This document shows positions 1,678 through 32,308 of a stretch of 35,749 nucleotides of DNA, piece after piece. The notes beneath the pieces were generated by a model. It saw nothing but the letters and a program-made list of their open reading frames with translations, was not told the origin of the DNA and did no database searches. Position 1 is the stretch's first letter; each line of letters begins with the position of its first letter. A program made the position numbers and the translations under genes. The stretch is from a virus (Duplodnaviria > Heunggongvirae > Uroviricota > Caudoviricetes), in IMG/VR virus record IMGVR_UViG_2541047865_000003; one strand, written 5' to 3'.

Positions 1678-2259
1678 TTACAATCCTACCGCGTCATCCT
1701 TCCTCTGACTATCTACCGGAAAATACCGGTAGAGCGTCGATAACCCCACCCCGTAGATAATGGCCAGTTGCTGGCGGGTATGCCCCTTAGCCAATAGCCG
1801 CCCAATCTGTTCTCGCTCATGAGGCTTTAATGCGTTGGGCCTTCCACCTATGCGTCCCTGTGCTCTGGCTGCTGCTAACCCGGCCAATGTTCGTTCGACG
1901 ATCAACTCACGTTCCATTTCCGCCAGTGCCGACATCACATGGAAAAAGAAACGCCCCATGGCAGTGCTGGTATCAATACTGTCTGTTAAAGAGCGGAAGT
2001 GGGCACCGCGTTCATGTAACTCTGATATCAGTGCGATCAGGTTCTTAACGCTGCGCCCCAGCCTGTCCAGTTTCCACACGACCAGGGTGTCTCCGCTATT
2101 AACGCACTTTAAAGCGCGTTTCAGACCGGGGCGGCTGGCAACTTTTCCGCTCATACGGTCTTCAAAAATGCGGTCACAGTTTGCGCTTATGAGTGCATTA
2201 CGCTGTAAATCGCTGTTCTGGTCGATTGTTGATACGCGGATATAACCAATGACGGCCAT
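1678..2259 (-). CDS. gin: Serine-recombinase DNA invertase (Gin/Hin/Cin/Pin family)
   Basis: 193-aa product from MAVIGYIRVSTIDQNSDLQRNAL…, closely matching the Gin/Hin N-terminus (catalytic Ser in VST, C-terminal HTH …STLYRYF). ATG at 2257-2259 preceded by a GGAGGAG RBS. The track ORF 1678..2421 is an upstream in-frame extension. Confidence 0.85.
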   Translation of the reverse strand: MAVIGYIRVSTIDQNSDLQRNALISANCDRIFEDRMSGKVASRPGLKRALKCVNSGDTLVVWKLDRLGRSVKNLIALISELHERGAHFRSLTDSIDTSTAMGRFFFHVMSALAEMERELIVERTLAGLAAARAQGRIGGRPNALKPHEREQIGRLLAKGHTRQQLAIIYGVGLSTLYRYFPVDSQRKDDAVGL

Positions 2260-2321
2260 CAATTCTCCTCCTCTATGTCGCGGTGGGAGGATTTTTACAG
2301 ATTTCGCTATGTGTAACCGCT

Positions 2322-2347
2322 TTTCCAAAAACCTTGGTTTGGGAGAA
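2322..2347. repeat. gix/hix-like recombination crossover site (copy next to gin)
   Basis: 26-bp site TTTCCAAAAACC-TT-GGTTTGGGAGAA, resembling the Hin hix consensus TTCTTGAAAACC-AA-GGTTTTTGATAA. Inverted relative to the 4154-4179 copy, sharing a ~21-bp identical core. Confidence 0.75.
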
Positions 2348-2800
2348 GGTTCGGCATTACCCGTTGGTGTGCCTGTCCCGTGGCCTTCCGCCACTCCGCC
2401 AACAGGCTGGCTAAAATGCAATGGTGCGGCTTTTTCTGCTGAAGAATACCCGGAACTGGCAAAGGTTTATCCGACAAATAAATTGCCTGATTTACGCGGT
2501 GAATTTATTCGTGGCTGGGATGACGGACGTGGAGTGGATGCCGGGCGACAATTATTATCTTCACAGGGGGATGCAATAAGAAATATTGAGGGATTCGCAG
2601 ATGGCGGGATCGGTATGTCTTTTGATGCAATCAGAGGGGCTTTTTACGATGCAGGAACACGATCAGCGAGAATGCCGAATAACACAACTACTATAGACAA
2701 AACCGATGACCTTGGATTCGACGCCTCTCGTGTCGTGCCAACAGCTAATGAAAACCGTCCACGTAACATCGCCTTTAATTATATTGTGAGGGCTGCATAA
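2348..2800 (+). CDS. Alternative tail-fibre C-terminal variable segment (Sv'), no own start; would fuse to the constant S N-terminus after inversion
   Basis: Frame open through the crossover site, encoding the same NLGLGE junction as the S gene, then a receptor-binding-like region (PVGVPVPWPSATPPTGWLKCNGAAFSAEEYPELAKVYP). Stop at 2798-2800 overlaps the start of the downstream assembly gene. Confidence 0.65.
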   Translation, partial: GSALPVGVPVPWPSATPPTGWLKCNGAAFSAEEYPELAKVYPTNKLPDLRGEFIRGWDDGRGVDAGRQLLSSQGDAIRNIEGFADGGIGMSFDAIRGAFYDAGTRSARMPNNTTTIDKTDDLGFDASRVVPTANENRPRNIAFNYIVRAA

Positions 2801-3393
2801 TGAAACCTGTTTTTGATGAAAATGGGCTGGCTACAGTGCCGGGTGATATGCGTTGTTTTTATTATGATGCAGTAACGTCTGAATATACGGGCTGGTCTGA
2901 TGAATATATTAATACTGGCGTAAGTATGCCCGCCTGTTCCACTGGTATTGACCCGGGCGAATACATTCCGGGGAAAGTGGCAGTATTTACGGGTAAGGGA
3001 TGGAGCCATGAAGAAGACCACCGCAATGAGACTGTTTACTCAATCGAAAATGGCGCAGCTGTTACAGTGGATTATATCGGTGCCATCAAAGACGGTTATG
3101 TCACGCTTTCACCGTTAACGCCATACGATAAATGGGATGGTGAGAAATGGGTGACAGATACTGAGGCACAGCATAGTGCCGCACTAGACGCGGCAGAAGC
3201 ACAGCGCCAGTCGCTGATTGATGCTGCAATGGCTTCCATCAGTCTGATTCAACTGAAATTACAGGCCGGGCGGAAGCTGACGCAGGCAGAAACAACCCGA
3301 CTTAACGCCGTGCTGGATTATATTGACGCGGTGACGGTAACAGATACCAGCACTGCGCCGGATGTCATCTGGCCTGAACTGCCGGAGGCGTAG
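2800..3393 (+). CDS. Tail-fibre assembly protein (U'-like, alternative orientation)
   Basis: 197 aa with the conserved C-terminal assembly-chaperone motif (…DTSTAPDVIWPELPEA). TAATG overlap with Sv'. Confidence 0.75.
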   Translation: MKPVFDENGLATVPGDMRCFYYDAVTSEYTGWSDEYINTGVSMPACSTGIDPGEYIPGKVAVFTGKGWSHEEDHRNETVYSIENGAAVTVDYIGAIKDGYVTLSPLTPYDKWDGEKWVTDTEAQHSAALDAAEAQRQSLIDAAMASISLIQLKLQAGRKLTQAETTRLNAVLDYIDAVTVTDTSTAPDVIWPELPEA

Positions 3394-3805
3394 GCCATTC
3401 AATATCTGGCGCACCGGAAGTATCGACCAGTTCCAGTGTGTCCAGATAATCCAGCCACAAATTATATTGCGCCAGTTCCTCACCTTTCAGGCGACCAATC
3501 GCCGCTTTACCAGGCCATTGCTTACTGTTTATGTATTCGTTGACCTGATTAATCAATTGCTGCTTTTCCAGTTCGGCTGCGGCAATTTGTTCCTCATGAG
3601 TTGGCGGTGGAATATCAATCCATGCAGGCATTCCGTCGATGACACCTCTGTATTTTCCTTCTGGTGCTTCCTTCATAAATTCGGCGGCAACAGTGTCGTC
3701 AATTTCGATTCCATCATCGGGCCATTCGCCGGATTCCTGATAAGCGATTTTAAGCTCCACAGGGAAAAACGCATTTTTATCGGCACTGAAAATATATTTC
3801 TGCAT
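3365..3805 (-). CDS. Tail-fibre assembly protein (U-like, currently expressed orientation)
   Basis: 146 aa, C-terminus …DTSGAPDIEWPTPP. Immediately follows the S gene; 3' end converges on and overlaps the U' 3' end. Confidence 0.75.
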   Translation of the reverse strand: MQKYIFSADKNAFFPVELKIAYQESGEWPDDGIEIDDTVAAEFMKEAPEGKYRGVIDGMPAWIDIPPPTHEEQIAAAELEKQQLINQVNEYINSKQWPGKAAIGRLKGEELAQYNLWLDYLDTLELVDTSGAPDIEWPTPPAVQAR

Positions 3806-3807
3806 TT

Positions 3808-4653
3808 CTACCGTCCTATCGAAATATAACTGAATCTGTATTGCTGTGAGATATCACTGGTTGCCACACGCCACGCTGAATTACTGATATGTTCAAAATT
3901 TACAGACAAAACCTGCGGGGCAGGATTCGACGGGTCTGACTGAACGGCATCAGACATAACACTGACTGAAACCATCGGCTGATTAGGGAATGGTATAGGG
4001 AAGTGTCCACTGATAAAGCGGGTCGTGTTTCCTGAAAAAGTGCCAAACTGAACAATATATCCACCTGGTAGCCTGAACCATCCCGAACCAGAAGCGAATG
4101 CTCCCATATCCGGTATCTGATTATCTCCTGTGCCCACATCCCTTTTCGCCGCTTCTCCCAAACCAAGGTTTTGAAGAAAGGCTGCCTTATCGGGAATATC
4201 CGCACCGTTCTGGTCTTTGGCCAGTTTCTCCGCCAGCTTGTTCAGCACTGTGGTCGCAAAGTTCGGATCGTTGCCAAGGGCATCAGCCAGCTCTTTCAGC
4301 GTATCCAGTGTTTCTGGGGCTGTACCTGCAAGCGCAGCAATCGCCCTCGCCACAAATTCTGTCGTCACCAGCTTTTTGCTGTTGTCATTAGCTGCAGGCG
4401 TGGGGGCTGTTGGCGTACCCGTGAATGTTGGGCTGGCCTTCGTCGCATACTGGGTATGCGGGTCGGCCGCTGCGATGTGTTTCGCGAGATCTGAACCGCC
4501 TTTTTCAACCTGCTGTTTCAGGTATGAAGTACGGCTGGCCAGCTGTTTAGCCTGACGGTTAGAAATTCCATCAGGCCCACCCAGTACGGGGTCGGAGACC
4601 TCAATCTGGTAGATGCCGTCTTCCCACTGCGGGGTTTCGGGTAGATTTGCCAT
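3808..4653 (-). CDS. Tail-fibre protein (constant N-terminal part 4180..4653 plus variable part inside the invertible segment)
   Basis: 281 aa with a typical tail-fibre N-terminus (MANLPETPQWEDGIYQIE…) and the hix-encoded NLGLGE junction. Crossover site lies inside the coding sequence at 4154-4179. Confidence 0.85.
   Translation of the reverse strand: MANLPETPQWEDGIYQIEVSDPVLGGPDGISNRQAKQLASRTSYLKQQVEKGGSDLAKHIAAADPHTQYATKASPTFTGTPTAPTPAANDNSKKLVTTEFVARAIAALAGTAPETLDTLKELADALGNDPNFATTVLNKLAEKLAKDQNGADIPDKAAFLQNLGLGEAAKRDVGTGDNQIPDMGAFASGSGWFRLPGGYIVQFGTFSGNTTRFISGHFPIPFPNQPMVSVSVMSDAVQSDPSNPAPQVLSVNFEHISNSAWRVATSDISQQYRFSYISIGR
4154..4179. repeat. gix/hix-like recombination crossover site (copy inside the tail-fibre gene)
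   Basis: TTCTCCCAAACC-AA-GGTTTTGAAGAA. Inverted partner of 2322-2347. Confidence 0.75.
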
Positions 4654-8607: not shown

Positions 8608-9488
8608 ACACTCCTCGCCAGAATTTTGGCTGCCATGGTGCTTAACCCCGGCGACATACGGGTGAAGGTGGTGCTGGCGGAGTTAAGCTGCCCGGAAACG
8701 GCATCCAGCGCCGCTGCGATATTGCTGCCGTCCACGCCGCTCAGTGAAGACTGTGCCTGTTGTACATACGTGGCCGCATCACTGGTGGCTCTGGCCAGAC
8801 TGATGGCATCAGGCATGGATTCAGAAAGCGCATTAAATGCCGGAACGCTTTGACCCAACGCCCCGGACACGTTGCCCAGCCCGCTCATCAACCCCGGTAC
8901 GCGGGTCAGTGCAACGGCGGGGTTATCCTTCATTTTCTGCGCCACCCGAACGGCACTGATGGTGGTCTGGAGAACAGACTGCGCCTGTTTGGCGTAGTTG
9001 ACGCCGTCGCGGACGTACTGCGCTACCCCGGAAGGTGAAGGAACGGCACCGGAGACCGCCCCGACGCCGGGAACCTGCGTGCGTATTGCGGGTGGCTGTA
9101 GCGGGTTTTTCGGGTCGCCGATGTACTCCCGGAGAGACGCGGTGGCATTGACGGCCAGCACGTTGCCGGTGCTGTCGGTCTGCTCGCTGGTCGCAGTAAC
9201 ATCGGTAATCACGAACCAGCCGCGATAGTCACCGTTGCCGAAGACCAGCGCCAGCGCTTGATGGGCCTTCATGGCCGTTCGCAGTCTCGCCAGCTCCACG
9301 TCGGGCACACAATAGTGCTGATGGAAGACCAGGCTTATCTGGATTTCGTCCAGCTTATCGCCAACGAACTGCAGGCCGGGCTTACCCTCGATACGGGGAT
9401 GCTCCGCATAATCGACGCCGAACGTGACCTCGAAGCCGTCCCAGTAGGTAATCAGTTCAAACTCAATATCACCCAATACTGCAAACAT
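8604..9488 (-). CDS. Tail protein (P2 gpU-like / Mu N-like DNA-circularisation protein)
   Basis: 294 aa with a gpU-like N-terminus (MFAVLGDIEFEL…), immediately downstream of the tape measure gene. Confidence 0.6.
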   Translation of the reverse strand: MFAVLGDIEFELITYWDGFEVTFGVDYAEHPRIEGKPGLQFVGDKLDEIQISLVFHQHYCVPDVELARLRTAMKAHQALALVFGNGDYRGWFVITDVTATSEQTDSTGNVLAVNATASLREYIGDPKNPLQPPAIRTQVPGVGAVSGAVPSPSGVAQYVRDGVNYAKQAQSVLQTTISAVRVAQKMKDNPAVALTRVPGLMSGLGNVSGALGQSVPAFNALSESMPDAISLARATSDAATYVQQAQSSLSGVDGSNIAAALDAVSGQLNSASTTFTRMSPGLSTMAAKILARSV

Positions 9489-11953
9489 CAGCTGTACCTC
9501 CTGCGTTGTTGCTGAGCCAGCAGACGCTCCAGCATTTTCTCCAGCTCATGCAGGCTCATATTCAGTACGCCGGTCAACCCGTCAGGCGCTGCGGTTTCTT
9601 TGCCATTGAGGAAAAACTGAGGATTAAAGCTGACCTGGATACCGCCAGATGTTCCGCTGCCAGTTGCAGCTGCGCCACGACCTGAATATCCCGCCGCCAT
9701 GATTTCCGGCGACGGGATACGGGGAACATCCGGTGTCATTTCAGTGGCCAGACGCTGCCCGGCCAGTGCAGCAAGTGGTGTGGTGCGCTGCAGGCCGATA
9801 GCTGCTCCCTGCGCGATGTTGTCACCAAAGCCTATAAACACGCGGCTCGGCGAATGAATGCCCAGCTTTTCCTTGAACCAACCGCCGACGCTGTCGCCCA
9901 TATCTGTGACGGTGGTTTTGAGCGACTCCCATTTGTTTTTGATGCCGTTAATCAGGCCGTCGATAAGATGGCCACCGAAGTCGGTGAACTTCGCTGGCAG
10001 ATCAACACCGAGGTATTTCAGCGCAGCCGCAAAGGCTTTATAGAGCAGACCAACCGGCGACCAGTTAATCAGCAGCTTACCAATCCCCACGACACCGCCA
10101 TTAAACGCCTCTTTAATGTCAGCCCAGCGCTGTTTAAACCAGCTACTGACTGCGCCCCAGTTGCGATAAATAAGGTAAGCTGCTGCCGCGACGGCGGTGA
10201 TGGCGAGACCAATGGGATTCATCAGCAGCGCCCGGCCAATCCAGAGAACGGCCCGCCCGGCGATCATAATGCCGCGAACCAGCCCACCTGACAGCACACC
10301 ACCCAGTGTTCTGGCTCCTCTGGCGACGGCGCTGAAGCCGGTCACCAGCCAGCGGAGCTTACCGCCTTCACCGAGTGCAAGCGACAGTCGAAGCCAGTTG
10401 GCCCGCAGTAAAACGGCATTTTTCCAGACGTTAACAAAGGGGGAAATAAGGAGATTCAGCCCCAGCTTGAGACCGATAGTGGCCATCTTGAAAGCGAGTA
10501 ATGCTCCTACAACCTTTATGGTGCCGCTGACGATTTGCGGGTTTGCCGCTATCCATTTGCCGACACTGTCCATTAAAGGAATAAAAGTCTCACCCAGTTG
10601 GATCAAGGCCGGGCGTAGTGACTCACCAATGCTGATGGCTGCCTCGTTAAAACCAATCTGAGTTCTGCGCCAACGACCTTCGAGCGTATTATTTTGTTTT
10701 GCAGCATCCTTATCCAGCGTAGACATTGCTGACGGGGTATTCATTTCCTGCTTGCTGGAAAGGTATTTATCCCAGCCCTGACGCATTGACAGTAAATGGT
10801 TAACGGTCTGAATATCAGTGAAGACTTCTGCCAGACCAAATGACTCCATTAGCTTCTGCTGGCCTTCCTGATCGCCTCTTGAGCCTGCTGCTTTCCATTG
10901 CTGTAAAAACGCCTTACCTTTACCGTCGATAAAACGGTTGGCAATCATCAGTGAGGCTTCATACTGTGAGAAGCCCTGAGCGACGTAATTCTGCATTGAC
11001 CCCTGGTAATCCACCCCGGCTTTAGCATATTTCTGGATGGTATCTCCGCGCCCCATCGCCGCCAGCCAGTTTGACATATTGGTGACGGCCTCTTCCGCTG
11101 AGCCGCTGCCTTTACCAACTTCCAGACTGGCGACGATCTGGGTAATCGCATCTTTTCCATAAATACCACGAGCAGCGAAGGCTTTAGCCATACCGGGTAA
11201 TGCTTTTGCCATATCCTTCAGCTCAAATGACCCAAGTTTGGCTCCTGTTGCCGCAATACCAAATGCCTGTTCAAGTTCTTTCGCATCAGTGATTCTGAGT
11301 GCATCGCTGAAGGCATAAGTCATTTTGGCAAGGTCGGTCATATCGGCTTTGGTTGCTGTAGCGGTCTTTCCAAGCATCTCTGCAAACGTTGCTGCCCGTT
11401 CGGGGGCCATACCATCAGCAACTAATTGTCCGACTCCCCCTAACAGAGACTCCTGCAGTTGGTTAACCTTCAGCGAGGCCTGTCTGATAGCCAGGCCAAT
11501 TGCACGTTCCTGCCTTGAATCCAGATCACCAGTGACACTGATATCCCGCAACTGCGATTCAAACGAGGCATATTGTTTGACTGAGGCCATGACCGGTGCA
11601 CCCAGTGTTCTGACGATGGCATAGGTTTCTGCTCCCTGGCCATAGAGCGCCATGCGGTTAGCTTTCAGCGCGTCACTGGTGGTTGATACTGCTGACAAAC
11701 GGCGCTGCTGGCGCTCAATTTGCTCCATTGTGCGGCTTACCCGCAGCAGGTCGCTGTTGAGGCGCTGCATCCGGGAAGAACCCAACTGACCATAGCGTTC
11801 TGTTGCACGGGTTAAGGCGTTTTGGCGTTCCTGCAGGCGGCGCGATGTATCGCCCAGGGAATCAAGGGCGCGTCGGGTACCGCTGACGGCTGAGCGGAAG
11901 CTACTCCCGACAATGCCGCCAATAATGACGCCGACTGAAAATTCACTGGCCAC
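9488..11953 (-). CDS. Tail tape measure protein
   Basis: 821 aa; long helical N-terminal region, Gly/Ala-rich hydrophobic central segments; located after the chaperone pair. Confidence 0.85.
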   Translation of the reverse strand: MASEFSVGVIIGGIVGSSFRSAVSGTRRALDSLGDTSRRLQERQNALTRATERYGQLGSSRMQRLNSDLLRVSRTMEQIERQQRRLSAVSTTSDALKANRMALYGQGAETYAIVRTLGAPVMASVKQYASFESQLRDISVTGDLDSRQERAIGLAIRQASLKVNQLQESLLGGVGQLVADGMAPERAATFAEMLGKTATATKADMTDLAKMTYAFSDALRITDAKELEQAFGIAATGAKLGSFELKDMAKALPGMAKAFAARGIYGKDAITQIVASLEVGKGSGSAEEAVTNMSNWLAAMGRGDTIQKYAKAGVDYQGSMQNYVAQGFSQYEASLMIANRFIDGKGKAFLQQWKAAGSRGDQEGQQKLMESFGLAEVFTDIQTVNHLLSMRQGWDKYLSSKQEMNTPSAMSTLDKDAAKQNNTLEGRWRRTQIGFNEAAISIGESLRPALIQLGETFIPLMDSVGKWIAANPQIVSGTIKVVGALLAFKMATIGLKLGLNLLISPFVNVWKNAVLLRANWLRLSLALGEGGKLRWLVTGFSAVARGARTLGGVLSGGLVRGIMIAGRAVLWIGRALLMNPIGLAITAVAAAAYLIYRNWGAVSSWFKQRWADIKEAFNGGVVGIGKLLINWSPVGLLYKAFAAALKYLGVDLPAKFTDFGGHLIDGLINGIKNKWESLKTTVTDMGDSVGGWFKEKLGIHSPSRVFIGFGDNIAQGAAIGLQRTTPLAALAGQRLATEMTPDVPRIPSPEIMAAGYSGRGAAATGSGTSGGIQVSFNPQFFLNGKETAAPDGLTGVLNMSLHELEKMLERLLAQQQRRRYS

Positions 11954-23728: not shown

Positions 23729-24053
23729 GGTGACCTCCTGTATGACGATACTGCTGTACCACTTCCAGTTTGTTGTAGAGTGCGTCCAGCTTGGCCTCGA
23801 TGACCGTCTGCCCACGGATGTAATCCTCGCGGCGGACGTAGTTCAGCGGTAAATCCGCCTTAAACCGCATAAATTCTTTTTCCAGCTCGCCCCAGTTGGA
23901 AGCGGACTGTTGCAGCGACTGCTCAAGAGAGGCGAACCGCGCCGCCTGACGCTCCTCCGCTTTACTGAACAGCCACTTGGCCATACCGCCGACAAAGCTC
24001 ATGAAGGTGATGAGAAAGCCCACCACCGTCCAGAATTCAACCTGCAACGTCAT
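23721..24053 (-). CDS. Small membrane protein (1 TM, ~110 aa)
   Basis: Start MTLQVEFWTVVGFLITFMSFVGG… in ATGA overlap with the Rz-like stop. Confidence 0.45.
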   Translation of the reverse strand: MTLQVEFWTVVGFLITFMSFVGGMAKWLFSKAEERQAARFASLEQSLQQSASNWGELEKEFMRFKADLPLNYVRREDYIRGQTVIEAKLDALYNKLEVVQQYRHTGGHHG

Positions 24054-24703
24054 TTCTGTAATCCTTCCCGTTCGTCCAGCAGCCCGTTTATCTGGCTGCG
24101 CCAGATGCGGCACTGCTTCGCGTTGTCGATGATGTTGGCGAGGACATCACGCTGGGAGACGCCTGAGTTGCGTAGCCAGGCGTCAGCGGCTTCAGGTTGC
24201 CCGGACGCTGCGCCAGTGCCGGTGCCAGCGGCGGCAGTTGCGTCTGAATGACCGGTGTCGACGGATGCGTTGTCATATCCGAGCGCGGCGTTGTACTGGC
24301 GCACGAAACCGCGAGTAAACACGCACTCAATGGGATGGCTCTTACCTTTTTCATCAATCCAGCGCTGTGTGACATCGTTAATTTGCCCCTGTAGTTGTTT
24401 GTTCTGGCTCTCCAGTTGAGCAATCTGCTCAAGGTAACTGGCTTCAGCCTGCTGCCCGGCGGCTACCTGTTCCTGATACCGTTTCGCCCAGGCCCGCAAC
24501 GCAGCGTTCTCAAGCGTTGCCTGCTCCGTTTTGTACGTGTCGAATGCTGACTGCAACTCACTGACCGCCTTATCGCCGTCGCGCGTGGCGTTTTCATGCC
24601 CGCTTTTGTAGCCCAGGTAATAAAGCCCAATCAGAAAAGCATTTATGACCACCGCCAGCAGCAGACTGCGCCACGGCAGATTTTTTAGCAGGTTAGTCCA
24701 CAC
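24050..24703 (-). CDS. i-spanin (Rz-like)
   Basis: N-terminal TM (WRSLLLAVVINAFLIGLYYLGY), coiled-coil middle region, contains the nested Rz1 frame. Putative GTG start with a GGGGAGG RBS; start uncertain. Confidence 0.6.
   Translation of the reverse strand: MWTNLLKNLPWRSLLLAVVINAFLIGLYYLGYKSGHENATRDGDKAVSELQSAFDTYKTEQATLENAALRAWAKRYQEQVAAGQQAEASYLEQIAQLESQNKQLQGQINDVTQRWIDEKGKSHPIECVFTRGFVRQYNAALGYDNASVDTGHSDATAAAGTGTGAASGQPEAADAWLRNSGVSQRDVLANIIDNAKQCRIWRSQINGLLDEREGLQK
24088..24354 (-). CDS. o-spanin (Rz1-like lipoprotein) nested in the +1 frame of the i-spanin gene
   Basis: MKKVRAIPLSACLLAVSC… signal peptide with lipobox, then a Pro-rich short mature region; entirely inside the Rz-like gene. 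Confidence 0.6.
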   Translation of the reverse strand: MKKVRAIPLSACLLAVSCASTTPRSDMTTHPSTPVIQTQLPPLAPALAQRPGNLKPLTPGYATQASPSVMSSPTSSTTRSSAASGAAR

Positions 24704-25430
24704 AGCTGCCGCCTCCCCAGGTGAGATAACGCGGGGCCAGTTCGTGCAGGATGCGCTGCGGATAATGACGGTTCTCCCGCCAGTTGGCAGTGCTGCGTCC
24801 GGCATTCACCGTGGCGACATGACCAAACCAGCGGGTGCTGTCCAGCCCCTGCTGCGAGGCCAGCCGTTTGTCCCGCTGTACCCAGCCCAGACCACCGTTA
24901 TAGCCTGACAGCGTCATGGCCATACGCTCGCAGTCATTGACGGCGCTGACGCGTTGCCACAGCCAGCGGTCATAGCTGACCAGCGCCCGGATGGCCCAAG
25001 ACGGATTAAACGGTTCACGGCTGTTAAGCCCCGGCATCAGCTGACTTATCCAGTCAGCGGTGGTGGGCATAAACTGCGCCAGTCCCTGAGCGCCAACCGG
25101 CGAGACCGCATCAGGTCGCCAGCCGCTTTCCTGATGCAGCTGCGCGGCGAAGTCGGCCACCGGCGCAGACATTCCCCATTCAAGCCGGGCATTACGGATC
25201 ACATCGTCGCGATACTGCAGCGCGGTCTGCGGTGGCTGGGCAGCGCGGGCCTGACTGAAGAAGCCGCCACACCAGAGCAGCCAGGCTACCGTTACTGAAC
25301 CAAAGAGCTGCCACCAGAAACTGTGCTTACCCGTTCGGGCCTGCCCGTGGCGGGCCAGTTCGATGCCCAGCCCCAGCAGTACCAGCACGGCCCAGACAAC
25401 CTGAGGCCAGTACATATAGAGGGTCATCAT
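24693..25430 (-). CDS. Lytic transglycosylase (SLT domain) endolysin with N-terminal membrane anchor
   Basis: SLT catalytic motif (…LHQESGWRPDAVSPVGAQGLAQFMP…); hydrophobic N-terminal segments; sits between the holin-like gene and the spanins. Confidence 0.8.
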   Translation of the reverse strand: MMTLYMYWPQVVWAVLVLLGLGIELARHGQARTGKHSFWWQLFGSVTVAWLLWCGGFFSQARAAQPPQTALQYRDDVIRNARLEWGMSAPVADFAAQLHQESGWRPDAVSPVGAQGLAQFMPTTADWISQLMPGLNSREPFNPSWAIRALVSYDRWLWQRVSAVNDCERMAMTLSGYNGGLGWVQRDKRLASQQGLDSTRWFGHVATVNAGRSTANWRENRHYPQRILHELAPRYLTWGGGSCVD

Positions 25431-25780
25431 TAAAGCCCCATCGCTACGGCCAGACAGACTGCAGCAACAATCAGCGCACGGCGGATTAGCGCAGCAGAAA
25501 AGACCAGGTGAAGGCCAGTCTGGACAGGGAAGCGACCATCAGCCATCAGCCTGTCATCATGCTTCAGGTACTGACCGGGACGGGCTTTGGGGAAAAGCGA
25601 ACGGTCAAGCCAGTAGCCCAATACTGCCGCCAGCGTGATGAGTGATAGCTTGTAGACAACCACCGGCAGCTGCTGGGGCGATACCAGACCGATGGTGCCG
25701 AGCAGCAGCACAGCGGTCAGCAGCCAGCCGCTGAGACGTGGCTTTTTAACAGGGGGAATGAATTTTTTCAGGTTTTTCAT
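25430..25780 (-). CDS. Putative holin (three hydrophobic helices)
   Basis: Start at MKNLKKF… preceded by an AAGGAG RBS; three predicted TM segments; first gene of the late arm with ATGA overlap to the endolysin. Confidence 0.5.
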   Translation of the reverse strand: MKNLKKFIPPVKKPRLSGWLLTAVLLLGTIGLVSPQQLPVVVYKLSLITLAAVLGYWLDRSLFPKARPGQYLKHDDRLMADGRFPVQTGLHLVFSAALIRRALIVAAVCLAVAMGL

Positions 25781-26027
25781 GAGCGTCTCCTTGTGTAGTG
25801 GAGACAGCATCACAAATGGTCGGGGAAAGGGATTTTAAACAGCGTTAATAGTGAGGATGCAGACGTGAACCGCATGATGGCTTTGAAAGAACGACCAGCC
25901 CGGTGCGGTAACACCAGGCTGGTCATCAACCCACAGGTATGCACTGTGAGCCGACCAGGGTTCAGTCAGTCTCGCGAGACCAGACTAGCCTGCCATATTT
26001 TCATTGATTGCAAAAGGCTTACGGATA

Positions 26028-26798
26028 ATGAAAGAACAATCTTTACCCATCGTCCCATGGATTGGCGGTAAACGTCGTCTGGCGAAGCATATTTTACCAT
26101 TGTTTCCGGCCCATACCTGCTATGTGGAGCCGTTCTGCGGGGCAGCTGCGCTCTATTTCCTAAAGACTCCCAGCAAGACCGAAGTCATTAACGATATCAA
26201 CGGGGAACTGGTGAACCTCTATCGGGTGGTCAAGCATCATCTGGAAGAATTTATTCGCCAGTTCAAATGGGCGCTGGTCAGCCGTCAGATTTACAAATGG
26301 TTGCAGGATACGCCGGAAGAAACGCTCACCGACATTCAGCGGGCGGCCCGGTTCTACTACCTGCAGAAACAGGCATTTGGCGGCAAGGTCGCCGATCACA
26401 CATTCGGTACCTCTACAACCAGTGCGCCGCGCTTCAATTTGCTGCGTATTGAGGAAGAACTGTCGATGGCACACCTGCGCCTGTCGAGAACGCTGATAGA
26501 GCATCTGGACTGGCACCAGTGCATAGAGCGATATGATCGCCCGCATACGCTGTTCTACTGTGACCCACCGTACTGGGGAACGGAAGGCTATGGTGTGGAG
26601 TTCGGGCTGGAAAACTATGATCACATGGCAGATTTAGCGCGAAGGATCAAAGGGAAGATGATTATATCAGTGAACGATATCCCGGAAATGCGGCAGGTAT
26701 TCAACGGTCTGAACATGCAGTCGGTTGATATCAGCTACAACCTTAAGGTAACAGGCAAACCCAGCCCGAAGAAAGAGCTGGTAATTTGTAATTTTTGA
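26028..26798 (+). CDS. DNA adenine methyltransferase (Dam-like, N6-adenine)
   Basis: SAM-binding motif (FCGAAALYF) and catalytic DPPY motif. Start chosen at MKEQSLPIVPWIGGK…; the track ORF begins 24 nt upstream. Confidence 0.75.
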   Translation: MKEQSLPIVPWIGGKRRLAKHILPLFPAHTCYVEPFCGAAALYFLKTPSKTEVINDINGELVNLYRVVKHHLEEFIRQFKWALVSRQIYKWLQDTPEETLTDIQRAARFYYLQKQAFGGKVADHTFGTSTTSAPRFNLLRIEEELSMAHLRLSRTLIEHLDWHQCIERYDRPHTLFYCDPPYWGTEGYGVEFGLENYDHMADLARRIKGKMIISVNDIPEMRQVFNGLNMQSVDISYNLKVTGKPSPKKELVICNF

Positions 26799-26812
26799 AA
26801 GAGGTAGTTAAA

Positions 26813-26838
26813 GGTGGTGGTGCATCTGCAGCACCACC
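26813..26838. terminator. Hairpin between convergent Dam-like and lipoprotein genes (candidate bidirectional terminator)
   Basis: GGTGGTGGTGC-ATCT-GCAGCACCACC, 11-bp stem with one mismatch, between the two stops (26798 and 26846); flanking T-rich sequence on both sides but no clean U-tract. Confidence 0.45.
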
Positions 26839-26845
26839 TAAACAT

Positions 26846-27379
26846 TTAATCCTGCCTTGGACAAGTCCAATAATCATTATCTGGCTCTGGTGAATAAGCT
26901 TTCAAACAACCTGCTCGCGGGGTCTTACCATCATCTGTCATAGGAACTTTTTCCTTATCAAGTTTCACGGTCAGGTCTCCACCAGGAACATCCGTTTTAT
27001 CGAAAAAAACAGCCTGACATGCTGATTTAGATATTTTCACTTCGTGGGCATTATTTGATATGAACAAATAACAATTATGACCAGAGGCTATGTAGTCACT
27101 TGGAATATTATTTTCGTCTTTAATATGAAACTGCACCGTTGTCACCGGGCGTTCGCTATCCTCGGATACTTCGACTTTTTCAAAACTGTCCGCGTACTTA
27201 TCCAGGCCGGGGAGTTGTTGGCGAATAAACGGTAATTCGCGATTTACAACCGGATTATCTGTTTCAACGCTAAAAACCGCGTGCTCCTTAGCTGTGGTGG
27301 ACGTATCAGCAGGATCGGTATTATCTCCACACCCAGATAAAACAAATATCAACGGTAAAAATAATTTGCGCATAGTCAT
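26846..27379 (-). CDS. Lipoprotein of unknown function (177 aa), AT-rich moron downstream of the repressor
   Basis: Signal peptide MTMRKLFLPLIFVLSGC with lipobox; mature part has four more Cys; AT-rich codons; RBS ~35 nt after the repressor stop on the same strand. Confidence 0.65.
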   Translation of the reverse strand: MTMRKLFLPLIFVLSGCGDNTDPADTSTTAKEHAVFSVETDNPVVNRELPFIRQQLPGLDKYADSFEKVEVSEDSERPVTTVQFHIKDENNIPSDYIASGHNCYLFISNNAHEVKISKSACQAVFFDKTDVPGGDLTVKLDKEKVPMTDDGKTPRAGCLKAYSPEPDNDYWTCPRQD

Positions 27380-27414
27380 GTCCTTATACCTCTAATGTTC
27401 TTAATAGGAACAGA

Positions 27415-27825
27415 TTAACCCGTATTTTTTAATCTTTCGAACGCTGCGGACAGCTCCTTAAGCTGTTTTTCCATATCAATCATTCGCTGTTTTTCCTCAG
27501 CGCCTCGCAGCAACTCTTTTCGCACCTCTGGCTCCAGTTGGTTGAGCAGCTCCAATAACTTCAGATCAGACTGGTTGAAATGCTGCTCCTGATTAGCTGG
27601 CTGTGCTTTCTCTACCCCAACAGCTTCCCCTTTACCAGTAAGTAGCCAATCTATTGATATGTTCAAATGGGTGCTTAGCGCAACAAGAGCCTCTGCATTA
27701 GGTTCTCTCTCTCCACGCAGATAGTTTTGAAGTGAGCGATATGGAATTTTTGACAAGTCTGACAATGCCTTAATTGTCAGACCCTTAGCATCCATCGCTT
27801 CGCGCAATCTCTCTTTTATACTCAT
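27415..27825 (-). CDS. Prophage repressor (XRE-family HTH)
   Basis: Start at MSIKERLREAMDAKGLTIKALSDLSKIPYRSLQNYLRGER… (HTH), C-terminal coiled-coil-like region. Divergent from the early operon across an ~88-bp promoter/operator region. Confidence 0.7.
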   Translation of the reverse strand: MSIKERLREAMDAKGLTIKALSDLSKIPYRSLQNYLRGEREPNAEALVALSTHLNISIDWLLTGKGEAVGVEKAQPANQEQHFNQSDLKLLELLNQLEPEVRKELLRGAEEKQRMIDMEKQLKELSAAFERLKNTG

Positions 27826-27841
27826 TTGAACATATCTCAAT

Positions 27842-27869
27842 TTGACATACCCGTTTGGGTGCGTACAAT
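27842..27869 (+). promoter_or_regulatory. Candidate sigma70 early promoter (TTGACA-16-TACAAT) with overlapping operator dyad
   Basis: TTGACA at ~27842-27847 and TACAAT at ~27864-27869, upstream of the Ner-like gene. Inverted repeat TTGGGT(N11)ACCCAA straddles the -10; a further ACCCAA lies ~20 bp downstream. Confidence 0.5.
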
Positions 27870-27913
27870 AGACCCAATAGAGTACATCATAACCCAACAG
27901 GAACACGGTGCAT

Positions 27914-28138
27914 ATGAACAAACAACAAGTTCGGGCACGGCTGGTTGAAAGAGGCAGTAGCTTGCGCCAGTTCGCGCTTAACGCGGGCTATGAGCCACGA
28001 ACAGTCACCCAGGCTGTCAGCCGCTGGGCAGGCAAAAGCGAACTTCCACGCGGTCGTTTGACTTATCGGATTTTGCGAGACCTTTCGGTCGCAATAGGCA
28101 AAGAAGTTACCCCCGGCATCCTCAAGGAGGCGTCATGA
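27914..28138 (+). CDS. Ner-like DNA-binding early regulator
   Basis: …LRQFALNAGYEPRTVTQAVSRWAGKSE… resembles the Mu Ner core; first gene of the early operon, divergent from the repressor. Confidence 0.65.
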   Translation: MNKQQVRARLVERGSSLRQFALNAGYEPRTVTQAVSRWAGKSELPRGRLTYRILRDLSVAIGKEVTPGILKEAS

Positions 28139-28440
28139 GTAAACCAAATACATCAAGCTCAGGTACCCGTATTTTGCGTGTCCTTAAGGCTTTACGCGGT
28201 CACGCTCTGAACGGTGTTTCTAACGGCGAGCTGGCGTCAGCTCTGGGCGAGTCCCCGGCGAATATCAATCGGGCGCTCAATACCCTTATCGAAGAAGGAC
28301 TGGCCCTGAAACTGGATAACGGGCGTTTTGCCCCAGGAGTCCAGCTCTTACAAATCGCCATGGCGCACAGTACCGAAATGGCGCGGGCGCAGGATCGTAT
28401 CAATGAAATTAACCAGCGTGTTATGGCTGGTAGTCGCTAA
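28135..28440 (+). CDS. Winged-helix/HTH DNA-binding protein (IclR-N-like), 101 aa
   Basis: …VSNGELASALGESPANINRALNTLIEEGLA… HTH-like segment; ATGA overlap with the Ner-like stop. Confidence 0.5.
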   Translation: MSKPNTSSSGTRILRVLKALRGHALNGVSNGELASALGESPANINRALNTLIEEGLALKLDNGRFAPGVQLLQIAMAHSTEMARAQDRINEINQRVMAGSR

Positions 28441-28449
28441 GGAGTTGAA

Positions 28450-29358
28450 ATGGGACGCACAAAATCACAACCAGTTGAACTAGTGGAAGATGCACCGCTG
28501 ACCGATGGTCTCAGTGTCAGTCTTAATGCTATGTCCGAACATCGCCTCGAAATCATGCAGCAGTTTGGTGATGGCCTGCCGTATGAACGTGATCGTATTG
28601 TCCATGAAACACGTTTTTATATGGCTCAGAGTGCTGAAGCCATGCTGGAGGCGGGTAAACGACTGGTAATTCTCAAAGAAAATGAACCACATGGTGACTT
28701 CATCGACATCGTTGAGTCTCAGTTGTCCCTGTCCAAACGTACCGCGCAGGTGATGATGCAAGCATCCCTCAAATATTTGTCTCCCAAGCTTGAACCAAAA
28801 GCGCAAGCGCTTGCGCTTTTGGGTAAAACAAAGCTGTTTGAGTTGATGACGGAAGATGACGAAGACCTCGTCGAATTAGCCGATGGCGGCACGATTGCTG
28901 GTATGAGCCTCGATGATATTGATCGCATGACAAGCCGCGAACTGAAAGCGGCCCTACGCGAAGCGCGTGAAACCAACGCAGCACAACAGCGCGTGCTTGC
29001 CGACAAAAACGAAAAAATCGACTCGCTCTCCACAAAACTGGAGAAGAAATCCCGTATCCAGCCGCCCAAGCCTGACGAAGAGGTGAAGAAGCTGCGTGCG
29101 GAAGTTACAGCGTTAGCGGTTGAGGCGGAATCTGCCATCGCCGTTCGACTGTCCAGCGCCTTTGAGACCCTGTGCGCATACTGTGCTGAAAATATGATTG
29201 ATACCCCCAGAGACTTTATGGCCGGTCTGGTCTGCCAGTTGGAAAGCACCGCGCGTAGCCTGCGCTCCACATTTGACCTGCCGGACGAGCCGACAGGCAA
29301 CGCCGCCCCTTCATGGCTGACTGACCCGACGCCAGAGATTAACGGGCAGGAGGCATAA
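28450..29358 (+). CDS. Hypothetical early protein (302 aa)
   Basis: Strong RBS (AAGGAG); acidic/coiled-coil-rich; sits between the regulators and the transposase, where Mu has no gene. Confidence 0.5.
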   Translation: MGRTKSQPVELVEDAPLTDGLSVSLNAMSEHRLEIMQQFGDGLPYERDRIVHETRFYMAQSAEAMLEAGKRLVILKENEPHGDFIDIVESQLSLSKRTAQVMMQASLKYLSPKLEPKAQALALLGKTKLFELMTEDDEDLVELADGGTIAGMSLDDIDRMTSRELKAALREARETNAAQQRVLADKNEKIDSLSTKLEKKSRIQPPKPDEEVKKLRAEVTALAVEAESAIAVRLSSAFETLCAYCAENMIDTPRDFMAGLVCQLESTARSLRSTFDLPDEPTGNAAPSWLTDPTPEINGQEA

Positions 29359-29361
29359 CCC

Positions 29362-31131
29362 ATGAGTGCCGCCCTGACTGAACGACTGGTTTATGTTGCC
29401 CGCGCGGCACGTGACGCGGGGCATGGTAAGCGTGGTGCGATATATGATGCCGCCTGCGCCGAACTGGGCATTTCCCGCGCCACCCTGCTGCGCAAGCTGA
29501 AGGAGGTATCAGTGACTGACAAACGTAAAAAACGCGCCGATGCCGGGCGCAGTGCCCTGAGCCGCGACGAAGCCGCGCTGATATCTGCCACGCTGCGCGA
29601 GGCCACCCGTAAGAACGGTAAGCGCCTGTATTCCATCGCGGATGCGGTGGAGACCCTGCGGTCAAACGGCTTTATCACTGCTGGCAGAACGGACGAGGCC
29701 ACAGGCGAGTTTTTCCCGCTGTCCGAGGACACCATCAGCCGCGCCCTGCGGAACTATGGTCTGCACCCGGAACAGCTTGACGCACCGGCCCCGTCGTCCG
29801 AGATGGCCAGCCTGCATCCCAATCACGTCTGGGAGATTGATGCCTCACTTTGTACGCTTTACTACCTGAGCAACGGCCATAAAGGGTTGCAGGTGATGGA
29901 CAGCTCGAAGTTCTACAAGAACAAGCCTGCCAACATCGCCCGCATCGCCAGTGACCGCGTGTGGAGTTACGAGATTACCGACCATACCAGCGGCTGGATT
30001 TACGTTGAGTACGTGATGGGTGCGGAATCTGGTGAGAACCTCTGTTCTGTGCTTATCAACGCCATGCAGGAGCGCGGCGGCGCGGACGTGCTGCACGGCG
30101 TGCCGAAAATACTCTACCTTGATCCCGGTTCGGCGAACACCGCTGGCATGACGAAAAACATGTGCCGCTCGCTGGGCATCAATCTGATAGCGCACAAGCC
30201 GCATAACGCCCGCGCCACCGGGCAGGTGGAAAAGGCCCGTGACATTATCGAACGTAAACTGGAGCCGGGTCTCAAATTCCAGCCGGTTCATAGCCTGGAC
30301 GAACTGAACGCGCTGGCGGTGAAATGGCGCAGCCACTTTAACGCCACGGCGGTCCACAGCCGCCACGGTAAAACCCGCACGGATATCTGGCTGAAGATTA
30401 CTGCTGACCAGCTGAAAAAAGCGCCATCCGTTGAGGTTTGCCGCGAACTGGCGGTGGCCGCACCGGAACTCCGTAAGGTCACACCAAAACTGCGCGTCTC
30501 GTTCCGGGGCAATGAGTTTGACGTTTCGACGGTACCGGGCGTACTGGTCGGCGAAAAACTGATGATTACCCGTAACCCGTGGCGCAGCGATGTGGCGCAG
30601 GTGGTGCTGACCGGTGAGGACGGTCACGAGACGTTCTTCCTGGTCGAAGAGGTCAGAAAGAACGAGTTCGGCTTTGCCGAAAGCGCGGCGGTATTTGGCG
30701 AAAACTACAAAGCCCTGCCGGAGACCCCGGCGCAGACGGCGGCAAAAGAAATCGAAGAGCTGGTTACGGGCACCGATAACGCCACCGATGCAGCTGCTGC
30801 ACGCAAGGCGAAGGCGCTGCCGTTCGGCGGGCGACTTGACCCGTACAAACATATCGACGACACCACGCTTCCGGCCTATATGCCGAAGCGCGGTCAGGCT
30901 TCAGACGTGCGCGGGCCGCGTATTGAGCAGCGTCCGCTGACCCATGTGGAGGCGGCGAAAGCCCTGCGCGAGAAGTTTGGCGCTAACGGCCATATCTGGA
31001 CGCCGGAACATTACCGCCAGTTAACGGCGCAGTACCCGGATGGCGTACCTGAAGCCGCGCTGGATGAGGTGATGGTTACCCTGACCACTCCGGCCCGCAA
31101 CAGCGTTATCAGCATCGTTAACGGTAACTGA
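29362..31131 (+). CDS. DDE transposase (Mu A-like)
   Basis: 589 aa with an N-terminal DNA-binding region and candidate DDE residues (WEIDAS, LYLDPGS, HNARATGQVEKAR); followed by the AAA+ ATPase partner; RBS GGAGG. Confidence 0.8.
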   Translation: MSAALTERLVYVARAARDAGHGKRGAIYDAACAELGISRATLLRKLKEVSVTDKRKKRADAGRSALSRDEAALISATLREATRKNGKRLYSIADAVETLRSNGFITAGRTDEATGEFFPLSEDTISRALRNYGLHPEQLDAPAPSSEMASLHPNHVWEIDASLCTLYYLSNGHKGLQVMDSSKFYKNKPANIARIASDRVWSYEITDHTSGWIYVEYVMGAESGENLCSVLINAMQERGGADVLHGVPKILYLDPGSANTAGMTKNMCRSLGINLIAHKPHNARATGQVEKARDIIERKLEPGLKFQPVHSLDELNALAVKWRSHFNATAVHSRHGKTRTDIWLKITADQLKKAPSVEVCRELAVAAPELRKVTPKLRVSFRGNEFDVSTVPGVLVGEKLMITRNPWRSDVAQVVLTGEDGHETFFLVEEVRKNEFGFAESAAVFGENYKALPETPAQTAAKEIEELVTGTDNATDAAAARKAKALPFGGRLDPYKHIDDTTLPAYMPKRGQASDVRGPRIEQRPLTHVEAAKALREKFGANGHIWTPEHYRQLTAQYPDGVPEAALDEVMVTLTTPARNSVISIVNGN

Positions 31132-31141
31132 GGAGGAAGGC

Positions 31142-32308
31142 ATGCTGGTACTGAAGCAACAACTGAAAGAGGCCCGCATCCCGCAGGCGGTGGTGGCAAG
31201 AGCCGTCGCCGTTTCCGAGGCCACGCTGGCCCAGATTGTGAACCATAACGAGTGGCCACGCACCAGCCCCGAAGAGGTACGCCAGCGTCTGGCGTTGTAT
31301 CTGGAAAGTAAGGGGATTGATACAGCGAAAAGTTTTGATGCTGCACAGGGCGCTGTCACGCCCCGTACAGCGGGTACTACCGATAAAACCAACCTCAGTG
31401 AGGAAGAGAACATGTTACTCAAAAAGCAGGTGTTATTTCCAGCAACCAAAAAAGCGTTTGGCCTTTTCCGTGATCCGTTCGCCGATGAAGCCATGCAGGG
31501 CGCGGACGATGTGTTCACCACGCCGGATATCCGCTACGTGCGTGAGGCGCTGTTCCAGACCGCCCGCCATGGTGGCTTTCTGGCGGTTATCGGCGAGTCC
31601 GGTGCGGGTAAATCCACGCTGCGCCGCGACCTGATTGAACGCGTCAACCGCGAGAACGCGCCGGTGATTGTAATTGAGCCATACATCATCGCCATGGAAG
31701 ACAACGACGTGAAGGGCAAAACCCTGAAGGCGGCAGCTATCGCCGAGGCCATCATCAGCACCATCGCGCCGCTGGAGAGTATCAAACGCAGCCAGGACGC
31801 CCGCTTCCGCCAGTTGCACCGCGTCCTGAAGGACAGCAGTCAGGCGGGTTTCAGCCACGTTCTGGTGATTGAGGAGGCCCACAGCCTTCCCATTCCGACG
31901 CTGAAGCACCTTAAACGCTTCTTCGAACTGGAGTCCGGCTTCAAAAAACTGCTGTCCATCGTGCTGATTGGCCAGCCTGAACTGGCGGACAAACTGTCCG
32001 AACGCAACATGGAAGTCCGTGAGGTCGTCCAGCGCTGCGAGGTGGTTGAATTGCTGCCGCTGGACAACAGCCTCGAAGAGTTTCTGACGTTCAAACTGCA
32101 ACGTGCCGGTAAGCAGCTGGCCGACATCATGGACGCCAGCGCAGTGGAAGCCATCCGCGCCCGTCTGAGCAATCTGGGTAGTAGCCGTAAAAGCATGGTC
32201 AGCCTGCTGTATCCGCTGGCCGTCAGTAACCTGGTGATAGCCGCCATGAATCTGGCTGCTGAAATCGGGGTTCCGCAGGTCAACGCCGACGTCGTCAAAG
32301 GAGTTTAA
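31142..32308 (+). CDS. Transposition ATPase / target-DNA activator (Mu B-like AAA+)
   Basis: Walker A GESGAGKST, Walker B VLVIEEAH, N-terminal HTH-like region; immediately downstream of the transposase. Confidence 0.8.
   Translation: MLVLKQQLKEARIPQAVVARAVAVSEATLAQIVNHNEWPRTSPEEVRQRLALYLESKGIDTAKSFDAAQGAVTPRTAGTTDKTNLSEEENMLLKKQVLFPATKKAFGLFRDPFADEAMQGADDVFTTPDIRYVREALFQTARHGGFLAVIGESGAGKSTLRRDLIERVNRENAPVIVIEPYIIAMEDNDVKGKTLKAAAIAEAIISTIAPLESIKRSQDARFRQLHRVLKDSSQAGFSHVLVIEEAHSLPIPTLKHLKRFFELESGFKKLLSIVLIGQPELADKLSERNMEVREVVQRCEVVELLPLDNSLEEFLTFKLQRAGKQLADIMDASAVEAIRARLSNLGSSRKSMVSLLYPLAVSNLVIAAMNLAAEIGVPQVNADVVKGV

Follow-up and report, generated by a model that had tools for sequence, protein, structure and literature searches.

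A predicted lipoprotein encoded behind the repressor of a BcepMu-like prophage belongs to a widespread, uncharacterized domain family and may act in superinfection exclusion

Why would a temperate phage keep a lipoprotein gene directly behind its repressor? The question is raised by a 35,749-nucleotide stretch of DNA (IMG/VR record IMGVR_UViG_2541047865_000003; hereafter the window), a chromosomal segment with a BcepMu-like (Bcepmuvirus-type) transposable prophage of Enterobacteriaceae. A first-pass annotation, made from the letters alone, had singled out an open reading frame of 177 amino acids immediately downstream of the prophage repressor as a candidate lysogeny-expressed exclusion or defense factor. 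Here this reading frame is found to be a real gene under purifying selection, whose product is a member of the uncharacterized C-terminal domain family of phrog_10002. It is most likely an exported, lipid-anchored periplasmic protein, predicted to consist of a flexible tether of ~18 residues, a disulfide-bonded alpha+beta domain and a tail with a cysteine pair. Our literature searches returned no study of this gene or of the phrog_10002 domain family. It is an envelope protein encoded in the lysogeny module, and its domain and fold are new. For its function we tentatively favor interference with superinfecting phages in the periplasm.

Selection on the gene was estimated from the ratio of nonsynonymous to synonymous substitution rates (dN/dS) against homologues, which is 0.10-0.18 for the whole gene, lowest in the core domain (0.05-0.10) and highest in the tether (0.35-0.44). 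The 37 close homologues in Enterobacterales, every one annotated 'hypothetical', come from E. coli, Salmonella, Citrobacter, Klebsiella/Serratia, Yersinia, Morganella and E. fergusonii. Although the 177-residue translation begins MTMRKLFLPLIFVLSGC, the PGAP start for the identical gene is the second ATG (equivalent to position 27373), affording a protein of 175 residues. The N-terminus MRKLF is seen in many homologues, and a start at 27373 is likelier than one at 27379.

The lipoprotein signal proposed by the first-pass annotation was borne out by a PROSITE PS51257-type lipobox rule ([LVI][ASTVI][GAS]-C within the first ~35 residues), which the box LSG-C17 passes. The signal segment MTMRKLFLPLIFVLSG-C17 has R4/K5, a hydrophobic core and six uncharged positions before the box, and both G16 and C17 are invariant across 21 homologues. 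Following the cysteine are Gly at +2 and Asp at +3, a GD pair shared by 34 of 35 close homologues and different from the canonical Asp+2 inner-membrane retention signal. An AlphaFold2 model computed from 21 sequences has a predicted local distance difference test score (pLDDT) of 82.7 and places a compact alpha+beta domain, with values above 90 in the core, after a tether spanning residues 18-35 (Table 1). The C-terminal PPRxGCL...WxCP motif occurs in 30 of 195 family sequences, and homologues with a long, helical insertion of 130-190 residues in front of this tail still keep it.

The sole profile match of the window protein is phrog_10002 (PHROGs v4; E 5e-14), with residues 27-134 aligned to the C-terminal ~100 of 328 profile positions; each distant homologue tested matches the same C-terminal part. 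A profile search of 1.84 billion representative proteins delimited the core-domain family as 184 clusters at 50% identity. Family members share the signature P.I...CPGL.KY ... IP..Y.A.GH.C ... K..C.S.CLD over query residues ~36-135, which the window protein also carries, the cysteines at positions 56 and 125 being variable. C103 and C121 are both cysteine in 184 of 189 aligned sequences, and a second pair at 56/125 covaries, with both cysteines in 127 sequences, neither in 42 and a discordant state in only 12. The window protein has lost the 56/125 pair and has an extra one, C158/C173. The paired cysteines of the core domain thus support disulfides and an extracytoplasmic location. In a 61-sequence alignment G58, G100, C103 and C121 are invariant, and Y62, P93, K118 and D127 each exceed 80% conservation; since only glycines are fully invariant apart from the cysteines, the core domain is more suggestive of binding than of catalysis.

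The first-pass annotation had recognized no motif in the protein, and our searches agree. Neither Pfam nor NCBIfam nor PADLOC contains a match (PADLOC-DB 2.0: 0 families at E up to 1), and PDB sequence profiles gave none with either alignment. The structure prediction and Foldseek comparison that it had recommended likewise yielded a compact domain with no reliable fold match: nothing in the PDB reached E <=0.001 for the predicted model, and no match to the fold was found among the BFVD viral models. A housekeeping function was also considered at the outset, and no similarity to a known envelope family was found. In contrast, a restriction to this prophage family, which had been raised as a point to check, does not hold, as a family member is also present on a contig (L066) without BcepMu-type marker genes.

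Members of the family differ in how the core domain is attached to the envelope. About half have a lipobox, and the remainder an N-terminal transmembrane helix or signal anchor; further anchors are a zinc ribbon plus transmembrane helix and a ~150-residue Flk_N-like cytoplasmic domain plus transmembrane helix. Among 62 family lipoproteins only six have Asp at +2, and most have Gly or Ser. By the +2 rule, the Gly/Ser members, including the window protein, are probably outer-membrane proteins, and the transmembrane-anchored members (with linkers of 15-17 residues) and Asp+2 members would be inner-membrane forms.

A likely outer-membrane location invites comparison with T5 Llp, Rtp45 and phi80/N15 Cor, of which the first-pass annotation had named T5 Llp and phi80 Cor as examples. 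In this mode the protein would bind the periplasmic face of an outer-membrane receptor and prevent adsorption, as do the periplasm-facing lipoproteins Llp and Rtp45 (PMC12685063; bioRxiv 10.1101/2022.06.28.497910), and a lipoprotein whose +2 Gly is not the canonical Lol-avoidance signal, in a family where Gly or Ser prevails at that position, would suit it. We nevertheless regard receptor masking as improbable. The protein has no sequence or fold similarity to the solved Llp or Rtp45 complexes or to viral models, and its mature form of ~160 residues contrasts with the ~6-kDa Rtp45 and the 'small' Llp (PMC12685063). Furthermore, the gene adjoins the repressor, ~22 kb from the tail-fiber genes (2.2-4.7 kb), and many homologues are predicted to be anchored in the inner membrane, by a transmembrane helix with a linker of just 15-17 residues or by Asp+2.

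The Flk_N-like forms raise a different possibility. A typical phrog_10002 member of ~320 residues comprises an Flk_N-like cytoplasmic domain, a transmembrane helix and the core (P0055, P0093, P0112), and such fusions include locus L040 (4870-5844), where the fused form and a 175-residue lipoprotein stand in tandem within one phage. Elsewhere a separate Flk_N-like tail-anchored protein is encoded 14 nucleotides upstream of a core-domain lipoprotein, with 34% identity between this protein and the N-terminal part of the fused form (E 3e-24); the likeness to Flk_N is based on precomputed hits and this one pairwise BLASTP. The Flk_N-like fusions and pairs would fit a role in the phage's own cycle, with the core domain as the periplasmic half of a transmembrane module that, together with Flk_N-like proteins, senses the state of the envelope and influences induction; alternatively, the protein could restrain the SLT lysin or holin in the lysogen. 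The position of the gene between repressor and lysis cassette is in keeping with such a role. For the window protein we consider such a role quite improbable. The window contains neither an Flk_N-like partner nor a second copy of the lipoprotein, and a lipoprotein by itself has no way to pass a signal through the inner membrane. The same lysis genes are present in most E. coli relatives although these lack the lipoprotein gene, and in the window a convergent Dam gene and a hairpin separate the lipoprotein gene from the lysis genes.

Genomic position is the most telling evidence. The lipoprotein gene lies behind the repressor gene on the same strand both in the window and in the prophages of E. 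coli strains 97.3 and A35, E. fergusonii and Morganella, with a gap of 35-41 nucleotides in most and 112 in E. coli A35. Across IMG/VR, a repressor-like gene was found upstream on the same strand at 33 of 34 loci, and the remaining locus ends at a contig edge. Distant homologues with 23-39% identity (P0047, P0038, P0055, P0116) are also found behind a repressor, as is the homologue of L066, which follows a CI-like repressor of 252 residues on a contig that shows no BcepMu-type marker genes; at L070 two tandem paralogues follow the repressor. The repressor context fails at L012, a short metagenomic contig, and at the betaproteobacterial locus L023-L026. Overall, at least six unrelated repressor types precede family members, in BcepMu-like phages of several hosts and on at least one non-BcepMu contig. 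The downstream neighbor is variable, being a convergent Dam gene, an NA37-like gene plus a gene of 402 codons, or a DUF2441 gene.

Repressor and lipoprotein alleles reassort. The lipoproteins of L031 and L008 are 90% identical with repressors at 31%, and conversely the window and L004 share repressors that are 88% identical with lipoproteins at 48%, the recombination junction lying near the signal/tether boundary. A strict linkage to one immunity type was rejected, as the E. coli A35 lipoprotein follows an unrelated repressor. We likewise rejected a spanin or other lysis-cassette lipoprotein, given that the cassette has its own lipoprotein-like gene (24050-24805) and that the convergent Dam gene lies between.

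The first-pass annotation had placed the reading frame ~35 nucleotides after the repressor stop on the same strand; the spacer is 35 nucleotides long and read-through is possible. It contains Shine-Dalgarno-like AGAGG/AAGGA motifs, and a promoter scan revealed no sigma-70-like promoter in or near it. The repressor gene is the probable source of a transcript reading into the lipoprotein gene, which looks like an extension of the repressor transcript, and we infer that the two are co-transcribed in a lysogen. Directly after the lipoprotein stop, a stable hairpin (dG, the folding free energy, -18.8 kcal/mol; z -4.39; 0 of 200 shuffles equally stable) is a candidate bidirectional terminator, without a strong U-tract and not called by a terminator scan.

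The spacer also holds a palindrome, TGTTC-N7-GAACA (27396-27412), right after the repressor stop. It is kept wherever the 136-residue repressor type occurs (window, L030, L004, L008) and is missing behind the unrelated repressor of L031. Three more TGTTC half-sites (27828, 27901 and 27916) fall in the repressor/early-promoter region of ~95 nucleotides, where ~0.1 would be expected. The repressor may bind at these sites, and one of them could control whether transcription continues into the lipoprotein gene. A separate motif, (F/Y)-(H/x)-G-x-V-G-Q-x-A-x-G-(D/N)-I-x-N, is seen repeatedly in related phages and is missing from the window repressor; it stands at the C-terminus of several repressors and at the extreme N-terminus of Flk_N-like proteins and of small two-transmembrane-helix proteins encoded just downstream (L016 5976-6392, 6396-6986 and 7410-7793; L022 6463-6927; L040 4376-4873; also L078, region +392 to +1237 relative to the match).

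The atypical composition claimed in the first-pass annotation was confirmed. The lipoprotein gene has a GC content of 41.8%, and of 35.4% at third codon positions (GC3), compared with averages of 55.3% and 61.8% for 20 other window genes. It has the lowest GC content among the window genes, and the lowest-GC windows of 534 nucleotides across the 35.7 kb lie inside it or right beside it. The repressor gene is likewise low (GC 44.8%, GC3 43.8%), so that the atypical block is the repressor-lipoprotein pair. Presence is patchy: among 5426 complete E. coli genomes, a BcepMu-type transposase was found in 639 and the lipoprotein in 22, and in the common E. coli lineage nothing stands between repressor and Dam (strain JJ1886 of sequence type 131 (ST131); VG38 also lacks the lipoprotein gene). 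A tblastn search of phage GenBank records returned just two records, Phi06_2974 B and KP12 clone 2. Within this phage group the gene is thus accessory. Patchy presence among close relatives and an atypical base composition are features of a moron in the sense of Hendrix and colleagues, the term used in the first-pass annotation; of the flanking promoter and terminator that a moron would also have, no sigma-70-like promoter was found upstream, and the downstream hairpin lacks a U-tract. The recent, single-phage acquisition that the term might imply was rejected, because the same position is held behind many repressor types, down to 23% identity. The gene is an old accessory part of the lysogeny module.

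What, then, would such a protein do in a lysogen? Our tentative preference is that it blocks superinfecting phages after adsorption, in the periplasm. The lysogen would transcribe the lipoprotein gene together with the repressor; the protein would be exported, lipidated and retained in the periplasm; and its non-enzymatic binding module would there halt a phage that has already adsorbed. The component intercepted could be the tail tip, tape-measure or ejection proteins, or a tail-associated wall hydrolase; alternatively, the target could be envelope machinery used by entering phage components. With family members tethered to the inner or, probably, the outer membrane, the target is probably reachable from either side of the periplasm. 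The lysogeny modules of relatives often have additional small membrane proteins or two tandem paralogues (L040, L048, L070). Such an action would resemble that of Ltp in Gram-positive hosts, and one homologue, P0049, has a transmembrane helix, the core domain and then two Lipoprotein_Ltp repeats (PF07553, E 5.5e-28; phrog_15667 'superinfection exclusion', E 1.7e-42). A post-adsorption entry block is favored by this fusion and by the lysogeny-module position, the only two functional hints, which make exclusion plausible.

Several observations weigh against exclusion. PADLOC reports no defense-system match, most E. coli BcepMu-like prophages have no lipoprotein gene, and the Ltp fusion is a single metagenomic cluster whose context is not clearly prophage. 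The dN/dS analysis gave no sign of gene-wide positive selection, which could be expected of an arms-race protein. Finally, the betaproteobacterial locus L023-L026 carries a homologue in a context without recognizable phage genes.

A homologue in such a context would also suit lysogenic conversion unrelated to phages, in which the protein would change an envelope property of the host to the advantage of the lysogen, for instance how it handles lipids or lipoproteins, tolerates stress, or resists serum or bile. High expression in lysogens is frequent among prophage accessory genes, whose functions vary (PMC7067206), the predicted model weakly resembles binders of lipids or other ligands (LolA, UPS1, fatty-acid-binding and Bet v 1-like), and carrier strains come from food, cattle, humans and other sources. 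Yet the tight and ancient linkage to temperate-phage repressors across hosts argues for a phage-centered role, and no similarity to known virulence or envelope families was detected, so conversion appears unlikely to us. Returning to the post-adsorption block, a broader version of it, which we hold as possible if rather doubtful, is that the core domain constitutes a hitherto unrecognized exclusion module, widespread among temperate phages, that blocks genome entry from the periplasm on a tether made of a lipid, a transmembrane helix or an Flk_N-like domain, with a target and fold unlike those of Llp, Cor, Rtp45, Ltp, SieA and Imm. The Flk_N-fused forms might then couple a periplasmic event to the cytoplasm.

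Table 1. Features of the lipoprotein gene, its product and the surrounding prophage in window coordinates
Feature	Position	Strand	Remarks
Lipoprotein coding sequence	26846..27379	-	177 amino acids from ATG 27379; stop codon 26846-26848
Signal peptide with lipobox L-S-G-C, residues 1-17	27329..27379	-	Cys17 is the predicted lipidated N-terminus
Disordered tether, residues 18-35, GDNTDPADTSTTAKEHAV	27275..27328	-	pLDDT <50 for residues 18-30
Conserved core domain, residues 36-135	26975..27274	-	Contains the C103-C121 pair; pLDDT >90
C-terminal extension, residues 136-177	26849..26974	-	PPRxGCL...WxCP motif and Cys pair C158/C173
Spacer, repressor stop to lipoprotein start	27380..27414	-	35 nucleotides
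Repressor gene, HTH_3 / Phage_CI_repr	27415..27825	-	136 amino acids
Stable hairpin right after lipoprotein stop	26807..26843	-	Between convergent lipoprotein and Dam genes
D12-class Dam methyltransferase	26004-26798	+	Convergent with lipoprotein gene
Early promoter TTGACA-16-TACAAT	27842-27869	+	Near-consensus; faces early genes
Early operon		+	Diverges from repressor; ner-like gene, IclR-type helix-turn-helix gene, DUF3102, transposase, ExeA/AAA protein
DDE transposase	29362-31131	+	
ExeA/AAA transposition protein	31142-32308	+	
Late and lysis genes	~25.8 kb down to ~2 kb	-	
Holin_2-3 holin	25430-25813	-	
SLT lysin	24693-25430	-	
Lipoprotein-like gene of lysis cassette	24050-24805		
Tape-measure protein	9488-11953	-	
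gp53-like tail-fiber C-terminus	3808-4653	-	
Further open reading frame of tail-fiber region	3362-3829	+	
Tail-fiber assembly protein	2800-3393	+	
Collar-domain protein	2249-2800	+	GC3 only 37.5%

The remaining features of the prophage are collected in Table 1. Positions 25800-29400 of the window match Escherichia phage Phi06_2974 B at 100% identity and a 'Klebsiella phage KP12' clone at 98.9%; a remoter relative is PhiKM, which has been classified as Bcepmuvirus. The KP12 record (OM835952.1, 'Klebsiella phage KP12 clone KP12_2', our L001) is filed under Vequintavirinae, although its sequence is that of a BcepMu-like transposable prophage and is 98.9% identical to an E. coli prophage across window positions 25884-29400. 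The sequence probably derives from the propagation host and not from the lytic phage.

At one end of the window (1-1602, plus strand) lies the N-terminal ~60% of a fimbrial usher (PapC_N and Usher, profile positions 2-320 of 549), whose reading frame ends abruptly. The prophage apparently transposed into a host chaperone-usher fimbrial gene, and the truncated usher would put the tail-fiber end of the prophage somewhere from ~1.6 to 2.2 kb. The window breaks off in the early region after GemA and does not reach the opposite end of the prophage. The tail-fiber region (2249-4653) has opposing cassettes on the two strands and could be an invertible or swapped host-range segment; no search for an invertase was made.

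The interval between lysis cassette and repressor module (25814-26845) is a variable accessory slot, as judged by comparison with L002, L001, L008, L031, L010 and L011. In the window it contains Dam only, and CFSAN051542 and KP12 have an extra DUF2441 gene. In the E. fergusonii/A35 type, an NA37-like nucleoid-associated protein and a protein of 402 residues replace Dam, and ST131-type prophages have three other small open reading frames. The Dam gene itself encodes an orphan methyltransferase of the Dam type (PADLOC MTase_II, E 9e-114), for which no partner endonuclease was seen; it is kept in many relatives, not all, and shares the intergenic hairpin with the lipoprotein gene.

BcepMu-like prophages are common in E. 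coli, the transposase being present in 639 of the 5426 complete genomes, ST131 included, and their lysogeny modules have hardly been studied. A conserved periplasmic family that lacks a fold match and stands behind many repressor types is a cheap target in which to look for a new Gram-negative entry-blocking mechanism. If exclusion is true, it would add a new protein family to defense annotation and would matter for predicting phage-therapy host range in carrier strains; if false, the protein would still be a widespread envelope protein with predicted expression in lysogens.

Several known systems bear on these proposals. Within phrog_10002, the window protein differs from the typical member in having a lipid anchor in place of the Flk_N-like domain and transmembrane helix, and in its added tail with a cysteine pair. 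The genes llp, rtp45 and cor lie beside receptor-binding or tail genes, whereas the window gene stands beside the repressor. Rtp45, at ~6 kDa, and Llp, described as small, both bind an outer-membrane receptor (FhuA, LptDE) (PMC12685063). Although Llp, Rtp45 and Cor too are periplasm-facing lipoproteins encoded by phages of E. coli, the mature window protein (~160 residues, ~17 kDa) is two to three times larger than their 60-80 residues and resembles none of them in sequence or fold. As judged from these features it is not a member of their group, and the analogy drawn in the first-pass annotation does not extend to membership.

The closest parallel in genetic setting is Ltp of the Streptococcus thermophilus phage TP-J34, a lipoprotein that is expressed from the lysogeny module of the prophage and stops DNA injection (PMC3952083). 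Like Ltp, the window protein is a predicted lipoprotein whose gene neighbors the repressor in a lysogeny module, and its extracytoplasmic domain would be tethered. In contrast to Ltp, the window protein would be periplasmic rather than surface-exposed, its host being Gram-negative. It has no Ltp repeat (PF07553), which places it outside the Ltp family, and resembles Ltp in neither sequence nor fold. SieA and Imm are integral membrane proteins, not lipoproteins. P22 SieA is, like Ltp, expressed from the prophage (PMC10883804), and with T4 Imm and Sp and P1 Sim it belongs among the phage or prophage envelope proteins that act after adsorption. None of the four is homologous to the window protein, and the likeness is one of functional analogy: an envelope protein that would act on an incoming phage once it has adsorbed.

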